From positions 127,377 to 151,376 of the forward strand of contig JAAFIL010000005.1 of the NCBI GenBank assembly GCA_013297775.1: a stretch of DNA of 24,000 bases, written 5' to 3'. A program made the translations under genes and the position numbers. Positions within the stretch are counted from its first letter, which is position 1, and each line of letters begins with the position of its first letter. Below the pieces are notes generated by a model. The model searched no databases and was not told the DNA's origin. It worked only from the letters and a program-made list of their open reading frames with translations. Of the stretch, positions 3,620 through 11,774 are shown in pieces. Source of the DNA: Bacteroidota bacterium (GTDB lineage: Bacteria > Bacteroidota > Bacteroidia > B-17B0 > Aurantibacillaceae).

Positions 3620-4288
3620 ATGAAAAAAGAAATTATTTTTGAAATACTAGAACATCTATTCGCTTTCGACGCGTCTTATAAAGACAGTAAAGACTATACC
3701 TTAAATGATTTTGTAGGTTACCTCACAGCGGTAACAGGCACGAATACAGTTGAAATGAGAGATATTGCAGGGGATAAGGAATTACATTTAAAAGAGGTAA
3801 GACGTGAAAATAATAGTGATGTCTCTATTTTAATTACGATTATGTTTCGTTATGCTAAGGGATATATTAAGAAAGCTTTGCAGAACAGCCCGATTCAAAC
3901 GATGGATGAATTTGCATTTTTGATTACCTTAATGACTTTTGATAGCCTTACCAAGACTGAACTTATTAATAAACAAGTAATGGAAAAAACTTCAGGGATA
4001 GAAGTTATCAAACGACTCTTAAGTCAAAAACTGATTAAAGAATTTGCCGATGAAAACGATAAAAGAAGCGTTAGAGTAGCAATTACAAGTAAAGGCAAAA
4101 AGGAGATAACGAGTGTATTACCTGAAATGGCGAATGTTTCAAAAATTGTTGTTGGCAATCTATCCAAAGCAGAGATTAACACTTTATCGTACTTACTAAA
4201 AAAGCTAGATTTTTTTCATAATGATATATTCATAAATAAGAAAGCGTTGACGCTTAATGAAATTTTAAGTGAGTCCACAAAAAACTAA
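3620..4288 (+). CDS. MarR-like winged-helix transcriptional regulator (222 aa, extended N-terminal region)
   Basis: The C-terminal half (TKTELINKQVMEKTSGIEVIKRLLSQKLIKEFADENDKRSVRVAITSKGKK) has the MarR wHTH pattern. It is divergent from the TonB-dependent receptor gene. Confidence 0.65.
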   Translation: MKKEIIFEILEHLFAFDASYKDSKDYTLNDFVGYLTAVTGTNTVEMRDIAGDKELHLKEVRRENNSDVSILITIMFRYAKGYIKKALQNSPIQTMDEFAFLITLMTFDSLTKTELINKQVMEKTSGIEVIKRLLSQKLIKEFADENDKRSVRVAITSKGKKEITSVLPEMANVSKIVVGNLSKAEINTLSYLLKKLDFFHNDIFINKKALTLNEILSESTKN

Positions 4289-4684: not shown

Positions 4685-4718
4685 CCCACCAAAGCCTTAC
4701 AGAAATGTAGGGCTTTTT
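4685..4718 (+). repeat. Second copy of the tRNA-Val 3' end plus terminator (copy B)
   Basis: CCCACCAAAGCCTTACAGAAATGT is identical over 24 nt to 483-506. Homology at roughly 80% continues to ~4756, into the GIY-YIG start. Confidence 0.85.
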
Positions 4719-4724
4719 ATTTGA

Positions 4725-5064
<340 letters not shown>

Positions 5065-5071
<7 letters not shown>

Positions 5072-5117
5072 AAGCCTTACAGAACTTGTCCCGATACTCC
5101 GAGAAATGTGAGGCTTT
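5065..5117 (+). repeat. Third copy of the tRNA-Val 3' end plus terminator (copy C), split by a 21-nt insertion
   Basis: CCCACCAAAGCCTTACAG + [AACTTGTCCCGATACTCCGAG, 5083-5103] + AAATGTGAGGCTTT. Both flanks are identical to 483-514. Confidence 0.8.
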
Positions 5118-5150
5118 CTCTTTTTATCAATTTGTTACTCACGAATAGTT

Positions 5151-6170
5151 TCAAGTATAACCCTCTGAATACTTAGAAAGTGTATGTTTCATTCTGGATT
5201 GAATTTTTCTTGATAATCGTTTTGGACTTAGAACTTTCACTTGCTCTCCAAAGCCTAATATTTCACGCTCTAATTCAAAATTCCAAATAACCTCAATTGA
5301 AAAGATCGTCCCATCAGGATCTTCTCTTAATATTTTTTGCGAAGCATGTAACGGTTTTGTAATAATGTAAGGAGCGTGTTCTTTAATGATTTTCATCACA
5401 ATTAATTGTGGTGTTTGATTGGGCATTTTCGAAACACCAATAACATCATTAAAATAAGTGCTTACATCAAATTCTGCTTTGCGATATTTCTCAGAACTTA
5501 ATTCTTTGAATTGTTCAATTCTGTCTAGAGCTAAAATCATGGTGGCGTTTCCCTTTCTTTTGGCACCTAACACAAACCATCTATTGCGATACTCTTTCAA
5601 TAGATACGCATAAAACACGATTACCTGCGGCAACCGCGCTTTGAAAGATTGATAAGTAACTTCAATTGTTTTTTTGTTGATAATCGCCTTATGCAAAGGA
5701 TCAATATGTTTTAATCCTTTTAATAGTTCATTCTTTTCAAAATCAATGTATGATTTGCCTTTATGTTGTTGCTTGTAAAGCTTATCCTCTAGCCGAGTTA
5801 CCATACCATTTAACTCCTGAAAATAGCCAAAACCATTAAATTGTTTCAACACATGCAACACCTCGTTTAACGTTCCCAAATCTTGTTGAGTAATGGGCGA
5901 ATTAGTTATGCTATAATTTTTTTCTTCATAGCTGTAATACTTCTTATCTGTAACAACAATAGGCGCATTGTAACCCAGTTTTTCGCTGCGCATATTTTGT
6001 AAATCAAGTTGTATGGCTCGCTTACTAATCCCTTTTGTAATCCCTTCATATTCATATAACGCATCAGAACAGGCTTCCATTAAGTCTTCCAACGTCCATT
6101 TACGAAAACGATTTTGCAAACAATTGTCTATCGTTTTATATCTTACTAAGGCTAATTTATTAATTGGCAT
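5151..6170 (-). CDS. HTH + WYL-domain transcriptional regulator (YafY-like, 339 aa)
   Basis: It has an N-terminal wHTH-like region and a central WYL signature (YAYLLKEYRNRWFVLG). The C-terminal extension is typical of WYL regulators (VKVLSPKRLSRKI). It is divergent from rsr. Confidence 0.8.
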   Translation of the reverse strand: MPINKLALVRYKTIDNCLQNRFRKWTLEDLMEACSDALYEYEGITKGISKRAIQLDLQNMRSEKLGYNAPIVVTDKKYYSYEEKNYSITNSPITQQDLGTLNEVLHVLKQFNGFGYFQELNGMVTRLEDKLYKQQHKGKSYIDFEKNELLKGLKHIDPLHKAIINKKTIEVTYQSFKARLPQVIVFYAYLLKEYRNRWFVLGAKRKGNATMILALDRIEQFKELSSEKYRKAEFDVSTYFNDVIGVSKMPNQTPQLIVMKIIKEHAPYIITKPLHASQKILREDPDGTIFSIEVIWNFELEREILGFGEQVKVLSPKRLSRKIQSRMKHTLSKYSEGYT

Positions 6171-6218: not shown

Positions 6219-6241
6219 ACTACGCAATCTATTTGCGTAGT
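6219..6241. promoter_or_regulatory. Operator-like perfect palindrome ACTACGCAA-N5-TTGCGTAGT (site 1)
   Basis: 9-bp perfect inverted repeat with a 5-bp spacer, 49 bp upstream of the WYL regulator start codon. Confidence 0.5.
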
Positions 6242-6331: not shown

Positions 6332-6354
6332 ACTACGCAATTCGGATGCGTACT
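6332..6354. promoter_or_regulatory. Operator-like palindrome ACTACGCAA-N5-ATGCGTACT (site 2)
   Basis: The left half-site is identical to site 1. The right half has 2 mismatches. The two sites are 113 bp apart centre to centre, and site 2 ends ~160 bp upstream of rsr. Confidence 0.45.
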
Positions 6355-6479
6355 AGCACCTCACCTTTGTACTGTTAATATGAAACGCCAATAGAAAACG
6401 ATTTTAAATTGGCGTTAAATAAAAATAGAAAACATGAACTTTTTTTGTTTCAATTAAAAAAGTAACGAAAATCAAAAAA

Positions 6480-6516: not shown

Positions 6517-8034
6517 ATGAAATTCAATGTCTTTAAAAGAAAAGCAAATGTAGTAAACAACTACGAAGGCGCAAAAGCTTACCAGTTAACTCCTGAAATT
6601 GAATTATACGCTGCTGTAGTAACAGCTGGATTAAGCGATACTTTTTATGAGAAAAGTGATATACGTTTGGCTAGAATACAAACGTTGATGTTGAAGAATA
6701 ATCCTGAGTATGTTGCAAAATTAGCAGTGTATGCGCGTAATGAAATGTACATGAGAAGTATCCCTTTGGTATTAGCTGTCGAGTTGGCCAAATTAAACTC
6801 AGGTAATGTAATTGTAAGTAAAACAGTAAATGGCGTTGTGAAACGTGCAGATGAAATCACGGAACTATTAGCTTACTACCAATTAGCCAATAATAGAAAT
6901 GGCGTTAAAAAATTGAACAAGCTTTCTAAACAAATACAAAAAGGTTTGTCTGAAGCTTTCAATAAATTTGATGAGTATCAATTTGCTAAGTATAACCGTG
7001 CAACTGAAGTAAAATTGCGTGATGCTTTATTTATAGTTCACCCAAAAGCTAAACAAGAATCTCAACAAGAGATATTCAATAAAATAGCTACTAATGGATT
7101 AGCAGTGCCATATACTTGGGAAACTGAATTATCGGCTTTAGGGCAAGTGAAATACGAAAATGAAAAAGTAAAAGCCCATGCGGTTAAAGTAAAATGGAAA
7201 GAGTTGATAGATAGCGGTAAAATAGGCTATATGGCATTGATGAGAAACTTGCGTAACATTTTAGATGCAAATGTATCAGCAGCACATGTTAAAAAAGTGT
7301 GCAACTATTTATCCAATGAAATTGCTGTTGCTAATTCAAAACAATTACCTTTTCGATTCTTGGCCGCTTACCGAGAGATAAAAATTTTAAAATCTGAATA
7401 TGTTACCATGATTTTAAATGCTTTAGAAGATGCAGTAGTTGCAAGTGCAAAAAACCTGAAAGGGTTTGATGAGTCAACAAGAGTATTGATTGCTTGTGAT
7501 GTATCTGGGTCAATGCAAAAAGCAGTATCTGCAAAAAGTAAAGTGATGTTGTTTGACATAGGTTTGATGTTGGGTATGTTGATGCAATCGAAATGTAAAA
7601 GAGTAGTAACCGGAATGTTTGGTGATAACTGGAAAGTGATAAACATGCCAAACCGTGGAGTATTATCAAATGTTGATGAATACTACAAACGAGAAGGTGA
7701 AGTTGGTTACGCAACAAATGGTTATAAAGTGATTGATGATTTAATCAATCGTGGAGTAATGATGGATAAAATAATGTTGTTCACTGACTGCCAATTGTGG
7801 GATGGCAAATTTGGAGGTTCAAGCCTTGAGAAATCATGGATATCCTACAAGCAAATAGTTCCAAATGCAAAATTGTATTTGTTCGATTTGGCAGGTTATG
7901 GCAACACTCCATTAAGTATTCAAAAAGATGATGTCTGCTTAATCGCAGGATGGTCAGATAAAGTGTTTGACGTGTTACATGCTATCGAAAACGGTGAGAG
8001 TGCTATTGAAAAAATCAAACAAGTAATGTTGTAA
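6517..8034 (+). CDS. rsr: Rsr / Ro60-like TROVE-domain protein with C-terminal vWA (MIDAS) domain, 505 aa
   Basis: The N-terminus NYEGAKAYQLTPEIELYAAVVTAGLSDTFYEKSD...YARNEMYMRS is TROVE-like. The C-terminal vWA has the MIDAS motif DVSGSM. Size and domain order match Ro 60-kDa orthologues. Confidence 0.85.
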   Translation: MKFNVFKRKANVVNNYEGAKAYQLTPEIELYAAVVTAGLSDTFYEKSDIRLARIQTLMLKNNPEYVAKLAVYARNEMYMRSIPLVLAVELAKLNSGNVIVSKTVNGVVKRADEITELLAYYQLANNRNGVKKLNKLSKQIQKGLSEAFNKFDEYQFAKYNRATEVKLRDALFIVHPKAKQESQQEIFNKIATNGLAVPYTWETELSALGQVKYENEKVKAHAVKVKWKELIDSGKIGYMALMRNLRNILDANVSAAHVKKVCNYLSNEIAVANSKQLPFRFLAAYREIKILKSEYVTMILNALEDAVVASAKNLKGFDESTRVLIACDVSGSMQKAVSAKSKVMLFDIGLMLGMLMQSKCKRVVTGMFGDNWKVINMPNRGVLSNVDEYYKREGEVGYATNGYKVIDDLINRGVMMDKIMLFTDCQLWDGKFGGSSLEKSWISYKQIVPNAKLYLFDLAGYGNTPLSIQKDDVCLIAGWSDKVFDVLHAIENGESAIEKIKQVML

Positions 8035-8042
8035 TAGAAGCC

Positions 8043-8070
8043 CCCTCTCTGTTAATTTGAACAGAGAGGG
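8043..8070 (+). terminator. Strong hairpin after rsr with a weak U-tract (leaky terminator or processing site)
   Basis: CCCTCTCTGTT (8043-8053) / AACAGAGAGGG (8060-8070) form an 11-bp perfect stem with loop AATTTG. It is followed by TTATAAAAA rather than a T-run. Confidence 0.5.
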
Positions 8071-8108: not shown

Positions 8109-8203
8109 AATGCCGTAGAATCGGAATACATCGCTCGCAACAGGGGAAGGGTCTCAATGCAAATTGGGAAGAGGTGCAAATCCTCATGCGTATCCCCGTT
8201 CTG
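8109..8203 (+). ncRNA. Y-RNA-like unit 1 (divergent)
   Basis: The 5' box is AATGCCGTAGAATCGGAATACATCG. Box residues 8116-8129 can pair with 8190-8203 (TAGAA-T-CGG / CCGTTCTG and ATAC / GTAT). Inside are a 7-bp hairpin capped by GCAA (TCTCAAT-GCAA-ATTGGGA, 8152-8169) and a T-arm-like hairpin (GAGG-TGCAAAT-CCTC, 8171-8185). Alternative registers exist, so the fold is uncertain. Confidence 0.45.
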
Positions 8204-8363: not shown

Positions 8364-8391
8364 GCTTTTAGCTCTTTCATAAAATATAAAC

Positions 8392-8503
8392 AGTGTCGTA
8401 AGTAAGAGATACTTCGTTTTAATTTATGTGTCGTTGGTTCGAGTCCAACTTTCATGCAAATGAAATAGCTCAGTGGGTAGAGCAATAAAAAAGACTCTTA
8501 CGG
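8392..8503 (+). ncRNA. Y-RNA-like unit 3: YrlA-style permuted tRNA-like domain on a long bulged helix
   Basis: The 5' box is AGTGTCGTAAGTAAGAGATACTTCG. GTAAGAG (8402-8408) pairs with CTCTTAC (8495-8501), and TTTAT (8423-8427) pairs with ATAAA (8485-8489). The variable region is GTGTC. The T-arm is GTTGG-TTCGAGT-CCAAC (8433-8449). The acceptor-like hairpin is TTTCAT-GCAA-ATGAAA (8450-8465), followed by TA and the D-arm GCTC-AGTGGGTA-GAGC (8468-8483), then A. Confidence 0.65.
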
Positions 8504-8530
8504 ATTTTTACCTGTTTTGAAACAGTGAAT

Positions 8531-8651
8531 GGTGTCGTAGAATAGAGATACTTCGACTTCGGATCGGGCGGACGTGGGTTCGAATCCCATCAAGGTAACA
8601 ACCACTTTAATTACCTTGTAGCTCAGTGGAAGAGCACCTTGTGCTTTATTC
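8531..8651 (+). ncRNA. Y-RNA-like unit 4: circularly permuted, complete tRNA-Arg(UCG)-like cloverleaf inside a closing helix
   Basis: The closing helix is GAATAGAG (8540-8547) / CTTTATTC (8644-8651). The anticodon arm is TTCGA-CTTCGGA-TCGGG (8552-8568), the variable region is CGGAC, and the T-arm is GTGGG-TTCGAAT-CCCAT (8574-8590). The acceptor 3' strand CAAGGTA + A (8591-8598) is joined by a 14-nt loop to the acceptor 5' strand TACCTTG (8612-8618). Then come TA, the D-arm GCTC-AGTGGAA-GAGC (8621-8635) and A26 (8636). Confidence 0.65.
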
Positions 8652-8672: not shown

Positions 8673-8746
8673 CGGTTTATAGCTCAGTTTGGTAGAGCAC
8701 CGTCCTTTTAAGACGGGAGTCCTTGGTTCAAATCCAAGTAGGCCGA
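8673..8746 (+). tRNA. tRNA-Lys (anticodon TTT), AT-rich atypical acceptor, no encoded CCA
   Basis: 74-nt cloverleaf. The acceptor is CGGTTTA/TAGGCCG (C1-G72, two G.U pairs). The D-arm is GCTC-AGTTTGGTA-GAGC, the anticodon arm is CCGTC-CTTTTAA-GACGG, the variable region is GAGTC, and the T-arm is CTTGG-TTCAAAT-CCAAG. The discriminator is A. Confidence 0.75.
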
Positions 8747-8750
8747 CAAA

Positions 8751-8823
8751 GGAAATGTAGTAAAGATGGTCAATGCAGCGGACTGAAAATCCGATGATGT
8801 AGGTTCGAATCCTACCATTTCCA
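8751..8823 (+). tRNA. tRNA-Phe (anticodon GAA)-like, non-canonical
   Basis: 73 nt. The acceptor is GGAAATG/CATTTCC. The D-arm GTAA-AGATGGTCA-ATGC has one mismatch. The anticodon arm GCGGA-CTGAAAA-TCCGA has a G/A mismatch at 27-43. The variable loop is 4 nt, and the T-arm is GTAGG-TTCGAAT-CCTAC. It starts 4 nt after tRNA-Lys. Confidence 0.6.
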
Positions 8824-8832
8824 CAAATACTT

Positions 8833-8905
8833 CGGGAAGTATTTCAATTGTTAGAATGCAGGCTTTGGGAGCTTGTGGTTGCAGGTTCGAGTCCTGCCTT
8901 CCCGA
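8833..8905 (+). tRNA. tRNA-Pro (anticodon TGG)-like, non-canonical D-loop
   Basis: 73 nt. The acceptor is CGGGAAG/CTTCCCG. The D-arm is TTTC-AATTGTTA-GAAT (3 bp, no GG in the loop). The anticodon arm is CAGGC-TTTGGGA-GCTTG, the variable region is TGGTT, and the T-arm is GCAGG-TTCGAGT-CCTGC. The discriminator is A. Confidence 0.55.
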
Positions 8906-8910
8906 CAAAA

Positions 8911-8963
8911 AGTGCCGTACAACATAGTTACTTCGTACTTTTAATATGTTAAATACTATGTTG
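8911..8963 (+). ncRNA. Y-RNA-like unit 5 (minimal: 5' box plus closing helix, no tRNA-like insert)
   Basis: The 5' box is AGTGCCGTACAACATAGTTACTTCG. CAACATAGT (8920-8928) pairs perfectly with ACTATGTTG (8955-8963) around a 26-nt AT-rich insert. Confidence 0.45.
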
Positions 8964-9012
8964 GTTATTTGCCTTTTTAACCGAAATTTTAAGAAATCGG
9001 ACACTTTATAAT

Positions 9013-9071
9013 AAAACATCTAATCCATTTTTAAGTTTTGATTCTAAGTGTTTTACAGAGTTAGATGTTTT
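9013..9071 (+). terminator. Terminator-like inverted repeat at the end of the RNA array
   Basis: AAAACATCTAA (9013-9023) / TTAGATGTTTT (9061-9071) is a perfect 11-bp repeat ending in TTTTATT, but the 37-nt loop is atypical. Confidence 0.3.
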
Positions 9072-9122
9072 ATTCTAAAGAATTTCTTTTTTGAAACTAC
9101 GATTTAACTATCTATTTACGAC

Positions 9123-9288
9123 TTATACCAATATCGGTTCTAAAAGATACAAGTTGAACCAGAATTATTTTTCTTTTAGGCGACGAAAAAATTACAGACG
9201 TAGCAAGGCCTACGGGTATAATTTTTGAGGAAGTATAAGAGAAAAAGAAACTGGGTCAACGTATCTTTTAGAAATGATGTTGGTATAA
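9123..9288. repeat. 166-bp long imperfect palindrome (extended hairpin / MITE-like) abutting the hrpB stop codon
   Basis: The left arm is TTATACCAATATCGGTTCTAAAAGATACAAGTTGAACCAG... The reverse complement of the right arm is TTATACCAACATCATTTCTAAAAGATACGTTGACCCAG... Inner pairs are AAAAATTA/TAATTTTT and CGTAG/CTACG around the central loop CAAGGC. Confidence 0.6.
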
Positions 9289-9290
9289 AC

Positions 9291-11774
9291 TTATTTTACA
9301 CTTTTACCTTTGGCTAAAGCCTTTGCCTGCCAAGGGTCTTCGGGCCAAGCATGTTTTGGATAACGCCTTTGCAATTCCTTTTTCACTTCGTGGTATAAAT
9401 TATTCCAAAAACTTTTTAAGTCGGTAGTTACTTGTACGGGTTTATATCCAGGCGATAATAAATGCAGCACCACAGGCATTTGATTGTTATTAACACGAGG
9501 TGTATCGGCCAAACCAAACACCTCTTGTAAACGAACCGCCATAAGGGGTGTAGCTCCATTCATAAAATAGGTGATGGGTAATTTAGAACCACTTGGCACA
9601 TTTAATTTTGAAGGTGCCAAGGCATTCAACTGTTGTTGTTGCTCCCAACTTAAACTATTTAAAAAACATACCTCTAAATTTAATTTCTTCAAATCATCGG
9701 GTTTTCTGCACGTTTCTAAATAAGGCCCTAGCCATTGTTGCGCTTGCACCAACAGGTAATCAGTGCTACTTTCTGGCCAATCTGCGTTGGTATTCCACAC
9801 ACGTAAACTCGCCACCCGTGCCTGCAGTTGCGCCATCGGTTCATCCCAATTTAATAAACTTAAACCTTCGTTAGCAATGGCTTTACAAATAGCTTCACCG
9901 ATCAAGTGCTTTGGAAATGTAGTTAATGGATTACGTTTCAATACCAAAGCACCTAACTTCCATTCAGTAAAGGCTTGCAAACCCCCTTTACGGGTGTCCC
10001 AATACAACGACTCTTCTTCACGCACCAAACTTTTCAAATCGCTGGGATCTAGTGCGGCTGCTAAGAAAATTTTTCCATCTCCCTCGCGCATATCCACATG
10101 CGCTACTGCTAACCAAGGCTCATGCGCTAAATTATCTTGATGTGCGAACAAGGCGTACTTACCATTAGCCAATTGAAACCGAGCGTTGTTACCAGGGCGT
10201 GCCGAGGCAATGCGCTCGGGGTAAGCAAACGCTAATGCCAAGCCCGCACTATGAGCGTCTATGGCGGTATTACTTTCTTTCAATCCCAATAAATTCAAAT
10301 AGTAATTTGCGTTAGCAGCAATGCGTTTCCACGCTCCTGTTAAACGATTTTGTTCACGAAGACGGCGCAATAACTCGATGCGTAAATTAATATCTATACC
10401 ACTATCGCGCGGCATAGGATCCCGCTCATCTAATATGGCCGCTACATCGCAAGCCAATTGTTTAAGCGTTATATCGTGGGCTTGTAACAGCATGTGTGCT
10501 ATGCGCGGGTGGCAGCCCAAACGGTGGATGTGTTTGCCATGTTCAGTTAATTTATTTGCTTTAATAGCTTCTAACTGTTCGAGTAGCTCGTTAGCCTGCG
10601 CAAGAGCGGCTTTGGGGGGTGGCGTTACCCAATTCAAATCGTAAACGTTGCTAACACCCCATTTGGTGGCTTCTAAAACAAGGCCACTTAAATCGGCTTC
10701 TATTATTTCGGGTACACGGTGTTCGGCCAGACGATTGTGTGTTGCAGTACTCCACAAACGGTAACACACGCCACTGCTTAAACGACCAGCACGTCCCATG
10801 CGTTGGTCGGCAGCATCTTTACTAATGCGCAAGGTTTCTAACTTCGATAAACCCGAACGTGTATCGAACCGTTGGCGTTTGGCAAAACCGCTATCAATCA
10901 CAATACGCACTCCTTCGATGGTTAAACTTGTTTCGGCAATAGAGGTTGCTAACACTACTTTGCGCAAGCCTTGTTTATTAGGCATTAGTGCCGCTTGTTG
11001 TTCACTTGAACTTAATAAGCCATACAGCGGATGTATGCGAATAGTTGATAATTCATTTTTTAATAATGCCTCGCAACGGCGAATGTCAGCTTCACCGGGT
11101 AAAAATGCCAATAAATCCCCTTCATGTTTAGCAAGTGCTTCTACAATGCACTGCGCCATTAATTCGGGCAATAACCGCTCGTCGGCATCGTTTCCATAAA
11201 ATAACTCAACAGGGTATTGCCGTCCTGTGCTTTCGATGAAGGGGGCGTTTAACAACGCTTGTAGCTCGGGCATATTGAGGGTGGCCGACATAATGAGTAG
11301 GCGTAAATCGGGACGTAAAACCTGTTGCGCCTCTCTGCACAAAGCCAAAGCCATATCGGCTTGTAAATTGCGTTCGTGAAACTCATCAAAAATAACCAAA
11401 GCCGTATCTTCTAAAGCATTATCGTGTTGCAATAAACGCGTTAAGATGCCTTCGGTTACTACCTCTAAGCGTGTGGCTTTACTAATGCGGGTTTCGAGGC
11501 GTATGCGGTACCCCACCGTTTCGCCAACGGGTTCGTTAAGTAATTGCGCCATGCGTTGCGCAATACTTTTAGCGGCTAATCGGCGAGGCTCTAATACGAT
11601 TATTTTTTTTCCTTGTAACCACGTCTCATCTAATAATGCCAATGGTAAAATAGTGCTTTTGCCCGCACCCGGCGGTGCTCCTAACAGAAGCGTATTTTGC
11701 GCATGTAACTGTTGCTTTAAATCAGCAATGCAATCGTTAACAGGAAAATTATATAAAAACGGATCGAATGTCAT
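9291..11774 (-). CDS. hrpB: ATP-dependent DEAH-box RNA helicase HrpB
   Basis: 827 aa with Walker A GAPPGAGKST, DEFHER (DEAH box), SAT, and the helicase C / HA2 / HrpB_C layout. It is colinear with my recollection of enterobacterial HrpB. Confidence 0.9.
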   Translation of the reverse strand: MTFDPFLYNFPVNDCIADLKQQLHAQNTLLLGAPPGAGKSTILPLALLDETWLQGKKIIVLEPRRLAAKSIAQRMAQLLNEPVGETVGYRIRLETRISKATRLEVVTEGILTRLLQHDNALEDTALVIFDEFHERNLQADMALALCREAQQVLRPDLRLLIMSATLNMPELQALLNAPFIESTGRQYPVELFYGNDADERLLPELMAQCIVEALAKHEGDLLAFLPGEADIRRCEALLKNELSTIRIHPLYGLLSSSEQQAALMPNKQGLRKVVLATSIAETSLTIEGVRIVIDSGFAKRQRFDTRSGLSKLETLRISKDAADQRMGRAGRLSSGVCYRLWSTATHNRLAEHRVPEIIEADLSGLVLEATKWGVSNVYDLNWVTPPPKAALAQANELLEQLEAIKANKLTEHGKHIHRLGCHPRIAHMLLQAHDITLKQLACDVAAILDERDPMPRDSGIDINLRIELLRRLREQNRLTGAWKRIAANANYYLNLLGLKESNTAIDAHSAGLALAFAYPERIASARPGNNARFQLANGKYALFAHQDNLAHEPWLAVAHVDMREGDGKIFLAAALDPSDLKSLVREEESLYWDTRKGGLQAFTEWKLGALVLKRNPLTTFPKHLIGEAICKAIANEGLSLLNWDEPMAQLQARVASLRVWNTNADWPESSTDYLLVQAQQWLGPYLETCRKPDDLKKLNLEVCFLNSLSWEQQQQLNALAPSKLNVPSGSKLPITYFMNGATPLMAVRLQEVFGLADTPRVNNNQMPVVLHLLSPGYKPVQVTTDLKSFWNNLYHEVKKELQRRYPKHAWPEDPWQAKALAKGKSVK

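Follow-up and report, generated by a model that had tools for sequence, protein, structure and literature searches.

Three supernumerary tRNA genes between Y-RNA-like units of an rsr locus in a Bacteroidota bacterium

The stretch of DNA analyzed here, referred to below as the window, comprises 24,000 nucleotides of the genome of a member of the Bacteroidota (GenBank assembly GCA_013297775.1, contig JAAFIL010000005.1, positions 127,377 to 151,376). On its forward strand, it carries rsr, the gene for an orthologue of the Ro60 protein, followed by a series of Y-RNA-like units and, between the fourth and the fifth of these units, three tRNA genes for Lys, Phe, and Pro. The original prediction proposed that this trio may consist of spare or nuclease-resistant tRNAs, or else of further decoys, that are co-expressed with Rsr and are not ordinary translation tRNAs. 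The three genes are the following:

8673..8746, + strand: supernumerary tRNA-Lys(UUU), with a C1-G72 pair and no CCA after the gene
8751..8823, + strand: supernumerary tRNA-Phe(GAA), with A13.A22 and G27.A43 mismatches and the weakest predicted fold of the 35 tRNAs of the genome
8833..8905, + strand: supernumerary tRNA-Pro(UGG), with a U10.U25 mismatch and a D loop that has lost G19 in this genome only

Structure of the three tRNA genes

ARAGORN recognized five tRNAs in the window, tRNA-Val, tRNA-Asn, and the trio, with the latter arranged head-to-tail on the + strand as tRNA-Lys(ttt) at 8673-8747, tRNA-Phe(gaa) at 8751-8824, and tRNA-Pro(tgg) at 8833-8906. All three matched the Rfam family RF00005 over the full-length model (positions 1-71), with scores of 65.0, 67.9, and 60.0 bits, respectively, against a gathering score of 29 (E values from 1e-11 to 1e-13), which is the same range as for the housekeeping tRNA-Val (69.5 bits) and tRNA-Asn (64.1 bits) of the window. 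The three predicted cloverleaves were recovered by both tools, and the spacers measure 4 nt between Lys and Phe (8747-8750) and 9 nt between Phe and Pro (8824-8832). The gap from tRNA-Pro to the box of the fifth Y-RNA-like unit is 7 nt.

All of the structural peculiarities listed in the original prediction could be confirmed. The Rfam alignments contain the acceptor stems CGGTTTA, GGAAATG, and CGGGAAG, as well as the C1-G72 pair of tRNA-Lys, which is accompanied by two U.G pairs. The mismatches expected in the D and anticodon stems of tRNA-Phe are A13.A22 and G27.A43. In tRNA-Pro, the U10.U25 mismatch comes in addition to a D loop, AAUUGUUA, that indeed lacks GG; this absence is confined to the present genome, as the loop reads TTGTT here versus TTGGC in four orthologues, all of which retain the GG. 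G18G19 is present in tRNA-Lys and tRNA-Phe, and the 7-nt anticodon loops with U33 and the TTCRANT-type T loops are canonical in all three array tRNAs. The description of the trio as AT-rich holds only in part: its G+C content of 43 to 51% is lower than the mean of the other tRNAs (∼55%) but still falls inside their range of 42 to 65%.

Two properties that could have been taken as special marks of the trio were rejected. Only tRNA-Lys adopts a clean cloverleaf as its minimum-energy fold, but this does not mark the other two as pseudogenes, since approximately half of the housekeeping tRNAs do not form a cloverleaf either. Similarly, the "N-CAA" tail at the 3' end is also found in 10 of the 32 other tRNAs. 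The CCA end is encoded by just 5 of the 35 tRNA genes of this genome, including, as predicted, the tRNA-Val of the window; C74 is encoded by nearly all of them.

An accessory lineage of extra tRNA copies

The genome (4.35 Mb, 37% G+C, 99.99% complete) contains 35 tRNA genes, in which every anticodon is represented by a single gene except for Met-CAT (three genes) and Lys-UUU, Phe-GAA, and Pro-UGG (two genes each). The second copies of the latter three, the housekeeping genes, are located on contigs C52, C39, and C58, respectively. The trio thus does not provide the sole genes for these anticodons, and its predicted status as a set of extra copies is upheld. The array tRNAs are only 70% (Lys), 67% (Phe), and 64% (Pro) identical to their own housekeeping isoacceptors; they are 84 to 97% identical to tRNAs encoded beside rsr or WYL genes in G015, G027, L009, L010, L011, and L017. 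For comparison, the housekeeping tRNA-Lys of this genome shares 96% identity with its counterpart in the genome of L017. The array tRNAs form a lineage distinct from the housekeeping genes, one that is accessory and horizontally spread, in agreement with the accessory origin originally proposed. No phage donor of the trio can be named, as the similarity to sequences in the phage collection is only generic (70 to 82%).

The anticodon loops of the array tRNAs (CTTTTAA, CTGAAAA, and TTTGGGA) match their housekeeping counterparts at each of the seven positions, which excludes nuclease resistance achieved through changes in the loop. The discriminator base A73 is present in all three array tRNAs, and tRNA-Pro has the C1-G72 pair. 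The anticodon, A73, and, in the case of tRNA-Pro, C1-G72 are major identity elements for bacterial LysRS, PheRS, and ProRS. Given that these elements are retained, it is plausible that the trio tRNAs can be aminoacylated.

The closest relative of the locus is L009, whose Rsr is 93% identical to that of the window. In this comparison, differences were seen at 6 of the 220 tRNA positions (2.7%) and at 35 of the 164 four-fold sites of rsr (21%), so that the substitution rate of the trio is ∼8 times below that of neutral sites; the spacers between the tRNAs are identical. Within the orthologous families, the anticodons are invariant, and compensatory changes on both sides of a stem are seen in five pairs of Phe, three of Pro, and two of Lys. 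The trio is under purifying selection. Several of the structural oddities appear to be traits of the lineage rather than signs of decay, judging by the alignments: C1-G72 of Lys is found in 4 of 4 orthologues, A13.A22 of Phe in 4 of 5, and U10.U25 of Pro in 3 of 5. Three changes are confined to this genome: Pro lacks G19, position 11 of Phe is U instead of C, and position 57 of Lys is A instead of G. The conserved loops and identity bases, combined with slow evolution and compensated stems, give these genes the look of working tRNAs, and the suggestion that they are something other than ordinary translation tRNAs is not sustained.

The slot between the fourth and fifth Y-RNA-like units holds a variable cassette. 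It contains Arg-Tyr-Lys-Phe-Pro-Gln in L009 and L119, Lys-Phe-Pro in the window and in the independent metagenome contig L120, Lys-Phe in L122, and Lys alone in L011, L125, and L132; Lys-UUU is retained in every such slot examined. The Arg and Lys genes of L009 have a common 5' sequence, which offers a simple recombination route to the deletion in the window. Of 36 further genomes from the genus, 3 yielded rsr, and 5 (G009, G015, G016, G021, and G027) yielded array-type Phe and Pro tRNAs. The Phe and Pro orthologues of G015 and G027 belong to arrays upstream of the WYL gene. The loci of G016 and G009 each carry 23 tRNAs, arranged as array A, a WYL gene whose product is 77% identical to that of the window, and array B; rsr and Y boxes are absent from both. 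G021 has 18 tRNAs around a Band-7 gene, and L010 has 17. These near-complete sets of 18 to 23 tRNAs in the relatives argue for a spare decoding set and do not support the idea that the trio serves as further Rsr decoys.

Such modules do decay. In G027, rsr is split by a frameshift, and a 16- to 18-nt palindrome, GCCGATAGCTATCGGC, interrupts two tRNAs within their T loops, namely the tRNA-Lys in the Y slot and an Ile-TAT-like tRNA (L008, ∼8379-8470 and 4054-4122). The trio could similarly represent hitch-hikers, leftovers of a larger array that have become functionless in this genome; the shrinkage of the cassette from six to three tRNAs relative to L009 and the loss of the otherwise conserved G19 in Pro would fit such an origin. 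Neutral decay is contradicted by the low divergence from L009, even if Pro displays a first blemish. With L120 independently keeping Lys-Phe-Pro and with Rfam scores on par with those of housekeeping tRNAs, we give this explanation little credence.

A different possibility is that the array tRNAs are nuclease-insensitive substitutes, which would escape a tRNA-cleaving toxin or defense nuclease through bodies and anticodon stems unlike those of the housekeeping genes, or sponges that take up such an enzyme and thereby protect the housekeeping pool. Phage tRNAs are known to evade nucleases through substitutions in the anticodon loop (PMC10264068), a route that is not used here, and no PrrC- or RloC-type anticodon nuclease that would have to be evaded was found above the cut-off in this genome. 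The anticodon stems, however, are not the same as in the housekeeping genes: all five pairs of Lys differ, as do two of five in Phe and two of five in Pro. At least one nuclease, AriB, recognizes and cleaves tRNA-Lys(UUU) at this stem (PMC12409363), so that the differing stems could possibly confer resistance. Lys-UUU, a classical nuclease target, is also the one constant member of the Y-slot cassettes, its C1-G72 pair is present in all four orthologues, and a sponge role has been raised for the tRNA array of Anabaena (PMC8421152). A pure sponge would have no need for conserved anticodons, discriminator bases, or acceptor pairing. We regard a role of this kind as rather unlikely.

The rsr/Y-RNA unit and its presumed WYL regulator

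The surroundings of the trio include the following features:

5151..6170, - strand: WYL-WCX transcription regulator, divergent from rsr (Pfam WYL, PF13280, and WCX, PF25583)
6220..6240, no strand assigned: operator-like palindrome 1, of the CTACGCAAT-N3-ATTGCGTAG type, in the WYL intergenic region; conserved in nine loci, including the rsr-less L116 and L117
6333..6369, + strand: operator-like palindrome 2 (6333-6352), then a -7-like box, CACCTTTG (6362-6369); candidate promoter of the rsr/Y/tRNA unit
6517..8034, + strand: rsr, Ro60 orthologue with TROVE and vWA domains (Pfam TROVE, 2e-28; weak vWA_Ro60 match)
8043..8070, + strand: 11-bp hairpin immediately 3' of the stop codon of rsr, lacking a T run on the + strand; conserved in L009
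8111..8665, + strand: Y-RNA-like units 1 to 4, with 5' boxes at 8111, 8286, 8394, and 8533; unit ends approximate
8913..8975, + strand: Y-RNA-like unit 5, small and without a tRNA-like domain; box at 8913-8935, end approximate
9013..9080, + strand: long hairpin (arms 9013-9023 and 9061-9071), then a T-rich run, as read from the sequence
9291-11774, convergent: HrpB helicase gene, downstream of the unit

Each of the Y-RNA-like units begins with a box of the consensus TGYCGTA-N8-10-WTACWTCG, which occurs five times downstream of rsr and reappears 3' of this gene at almost every one of the 80 related loci. In Y RNAs, this 5' box and the segment with which it pairs make up the stem bound by Ro; the decoy reading would call for such a box, but no match to it was found within the tRNA stretch 8673-8905. 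The Rfam model of YrlA (RF02553, gathering score 69) produced sub-threshold matches of 42.6 bits at 8402-8504 and 31.4 bits at 8567-8638, i.e., in units 3 and 4. Together with the boxes at 8533 and 8913, these matches confirm the predicted location of the trio between units 4 and 5; a counterpart of unit 5 also follows the tRNA slot in L009. The hairpin at 9013..9080 is likely to mark the end of the transcription unit; a simple terminator scan missed it because of its long loop.

The tight packing of the trio, with its short spacers and the 7 nt that separate it from the box of unit 5, and the position of tRNAs exactly between Y units in several loci might mean that these tRNAs serve as processing punctuation, providing RNase P and RNase Z sites that free the neighboring Y RNAs, with any decoding being incidental. 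However, many rsr loci, including G015 and most of those in Flavobacterium, have 3 to 10 Y units with no embedded tRNA, which indicates that Y-RNA release is independent of such tRNAs. This explanation would also account neither for the invariant anticodons and retained identity elements nor for the arrays of 18 to 23 tRNAs at WYL loci devoid of Y RNAs, and it appears improbable.

Automated tRNA counts near rsr contain a trap. The Asn, Glu, and Lys "tRNAs" reported by ARAGORN close behind rsr in L020, L055, and L073 start no more than 2 nt from a Y box and are Y RNAs miscalled as tRNAs.

Orthologues of the WYL regulator (44 to 97% identity) are encoded divergently beside rsr in most of the Chitinophagales and Flavobacterium loci and are also found inside the 23-tRNA arrays of those members of the genus that lack rsr. 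No NCBIfam match was obtained for this regulator. The operator and a AACCTTTG-type box are conserved beside the WYL gene in all 9 aligned loci; in the two rsr-less loci (G016 and G009), the operator and promoter-like box face array B, which consists of 14 tRNAs. The palindrome-flanked box is presumed to be the WYL-controlled promoter of the rsr/Y/tRNA unit.

The Bacteroidetes -7 box (TAnnTTTG) is absent from the + strand between 7567 and 9305, whereas it is found within 80 nt upstream of 20 of the 32 other tRNAs. Given that the trio has no promoter box of its own and lies downstream of the WYL-rsr promoter, the simplest reading is that it is part of the WYL-controlled rsr/Y-RNA transcript. The absence of a separate promoter fits the originally proposed co-expression with Rsr, and the trio is probably co-transcribed with rsr and the Y RNAs. 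Two hairpins qualify this reading: the one behind rsr (8043-8070), which is not followed by a T run on the + strand, and a weak terminator-like one within Y4 (8631-8647).

Directly behind the WYL operator/promoter, two rsr-less genomes of the genus have a putative RNA of ∼300 nt (L116, ∼9270-9560, and L117, ∼9800-10060). The two termini of this RNA pair into an acceptor stem and a T arm of the tRNA type, and it yielded no meaningful Rfam match and no ARAGORN call.

The association of tRNA genes with rsr extends well beyond this locus. A search of the GTDB genomes found 390 relatives of rsr, and 80 Bacteroidota loci (1.57 Mb) were surveyed. They contain 239 tRNAs, a few of which are calls that overlap a Y box and represent miscalled Y RNAs, and 238 of the 239 are on the same strand as rsr. 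The regions around 80 metagenomic WYL orthologues (0.83 Mb) contain 184 tRNAs, with rsr in 30 loci and Band-7 instead of it in 22. For comparison, the genome of the window averages ∼8 tRNAs per Mb. Seven of the 10 viral contigs that encode Rsr carry 4 to 27 tRNAs beside rsr on the same strand. In L010 and G015, the array abuts a gene for a DRB0094-type RNA ligase. In the present genome, RtcB is encoded on a separate contig, C48, and not in the rsr unit, where the neighbor of rsr is the WYL regulator. The Bacteroidota array travels with the WYL regulator and, in a modular fashion, with rsr and Y RNAs, Band-7, RNA ligase, and RNA-end-processing genes; loci of this kind are RNA-repair islands.

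One version of such a locus is seen in Chryseobacterium, in the order tRNA array, RNaseH-like, cREC, DinB, two RNase T, Band-7, rsr, Y array. L078 (3650-9136) and ∼30 other Chryseobacterium loci contain the row RNaseH-like (PF04308), cREC_REC (PF20274; cREC is a cyclic-phosphate-processing receiver), DinB_2, an open reading frame of 132 aa, two RNase T-type exonucleases, and Band-7. Neither this 132-aa open reading frame, located in the gene row between the array and rsr, nor a conserved one of 218 aa 3' of rsr has a family match.

A probable role as spare tRNAs and a possible link to RNA repair

On balance, we favor the view that the three genes are functional, supernumerary tRNAs, left over from the trimming of an L-array-like set of spare tRNAs that has spread horizontally, and that they are stress-induced and co-transcribed with rsr and the Y RNAs. 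A single transcript would start at the operator-flanked promoter beside the divergent WYL gene and would comprise rsr, Y1 to Y4, the Lys, Phe, and Pro tRNAs, and Y5. The tRNAs would be excised by ordinary tRNA-processing enzymes and would receive CCA from the CCA-adding enzyme. Activation of the regulator, for which nucleic-acid damage is the presumed trigger, would provide the cell with a Ro60/Y-RNA quality-control particle along with fresh tRNA-Lys, tRNA-Phe, and tRNA-Pro, which could replace or buffer the damaged housekeeping pool. In this scheme, co-transcription, aminoacylation, the inducing signal, and the benefit to the cell are inferred.

Several observations weigh against this interpretation. 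The loss of G19 in Pro, the C11-to-U change in Phe, and a Phe fold that is the weakest of the 35 tRNAs are blemishes specific to this genome, so one or more of the tRNAs may be sliding toward loss of function. The array adds no new anticodon, and any benefit must therefore come from dosage, timing, or resistance. A terminator-like hairpin (8631-8647) followed by a T-rich run lies inside Y4, 26 nt upstream of tRNA-Lys; it is probably part of the Y-RNA structure but could act as an attenuator of read-through into the tRNAs. The WYL regulator has no sequence relative in PDB, and the lack of a PrrC- or RloC-type protein mentioned above also belongs here.

A broader and more doubtful proposal is that, in Bacteroidota, a WYL sensor runs a "remove, repair and replace" response to tRNA damage. 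Ro60/Y particles and linked exonucleases would clear broken tRNAs, linked ligases would reseal them, and co-transcribed spare tRNAs, which differ in body and anticodon stem and among which Lys-UUU would be indispensable, would restore decoding as poor nuclease substrates. If this is true, the tRNAs and the tRNA-mimicking Y RNAs would be two outputs of one transcript that use the same processing machinery.

Among the closest parallels to the array is the trn operon of Anabaena sp. PCC 7120, a dense, one-stranded, patchily distributed, and horizontally spread set of extra host-type tRNAs that diverge from the housekeeping set (PMC8421152, PMC10272220, PMC4758250). This L-array is not expressed unless translation becomes impaired, and it shares its regulation with rtcB (PMC8421152, PMC10272220) and with a slipin/Band-7 gene; surroundings rich in RNA-repair genes are thus common to L-arrays and the present loci. 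By definition, an L-array, or tRNA array unit, has 20 or more tRNA genes, with no fewer than 2 per kb (PMC4758250). The trio reaches this density (3 genes in 233 nt) but not this gene number, and it has the further L-array traits of being supernumerary to, and divergent from, the housekeeping set and of patchy distribution. Its direct relatives belong to arrays of 18 to 23 genes in the same genus, the largest being those of G016 and G009. Unlike L-arrays, the trio consists of three genes only, interleaved with Y RNAs inside an rsr unit, and the associated regulator is a WYL-domain protein instead of TrcR, the RHH repressor of Anabaena.

The unit resembles the rsr-yrlBA-rtcBA operon of Salmonella Typhimurium and other Ro60/YrlA loci (PMC4201824, PMC7790460) in that a Ro60 orthologue precedes tRNA-like Y RNAs encoded on its own strand. 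The Salmonella operon is induced by damaged tRNAs (PMC7790460), and this functional tie to damaged tRNAs is part of the likeness drawn here. In contrast to Salmonella, the unit has no RtcR or rtcBA, with a divergent WYL regulator in the regulator's place, contains five Y units versus two, and includes true tRNA genes among the Y RNAs. The 2014 survey of Ro60/YrlA loci (PMC4201824) did not report tRNAs among Y RNAs; matches that overlapped tandem tRNAs were discarded.

The trio also resembles the phage tRNA clusters that counter tRNA-targeting defenses, which are accessory duplicates of host isoacceptors, including Lys-UUU (PMC10264068, PMC11464382, PMC11555353), and the viral contigs encoding Rsr usually bear adjacent tRNA arrays. 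Unlike these clusters, the trio is part of a chromosome, and no phage genes were noticed in the window; the anticodon loops are the same as in the host copies, and the similarity to phage tRNAs is of the generic level given above.

The individual parts of this locus, namely supernumerary tRNA arrays, Ro60 with its Y RNAs, and WYL regulators, are of known kinds, and the present case is a minimal, Y-embedded form of the array combined with a WYL operator link. Modules of Rot/TROVE and Band-7 with cognate RNAs were reportedly included by Burroughs and Aravind in 2016 among RNA-repair systems, so some overlap with their work is possible. The interleaving of true tRNAs with Y RNAs, the WYL operator/promoter common to rsr units and stand-alone arrays, and the recurrent Bacteroidota island of array, rsr, Band-7, and ligase are not described in PMC4201824, PMC8421152, PMC10272220, PMC7824862, or PMC12135203.

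Beyond Deinococcus and Salmonella, what bacterial Ro60 and its tRNA-like Y RNAs do is still ill defined. Real tRNA genes that are under selection and lie among the Y RNAs, with an operator/promoter in common with stand-alone arrays, physically link the Ro60 system to tRNA supply. The control of supernumerary arrays has so far been known in one cyanobacterium only, and the WYL protein with its defined palindromic operator is a candidate regulator for a class of them.

An empty-site comparison that would treat the module as an insertion was rejected: none of three relatives is syntenic with the HrpB flank, and G015 and G027 have rsr on one contig and hrpB on another, so that only a different context can be stated. 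On the other side of the module, the 3' end of tRNA-Val and its terminator are present in the window as direct repeats in three copies (483-521, 4685-4723, and 5065-5124), which looks like the result of repeated integration at tRNA-Val. The segment between repeat copies (4728-5070) includes an open reading frame of 82 aa (4728-4976) and a degenerate tRNA-like stretch. The WYL/rsr module begins directly after the last of these copies.

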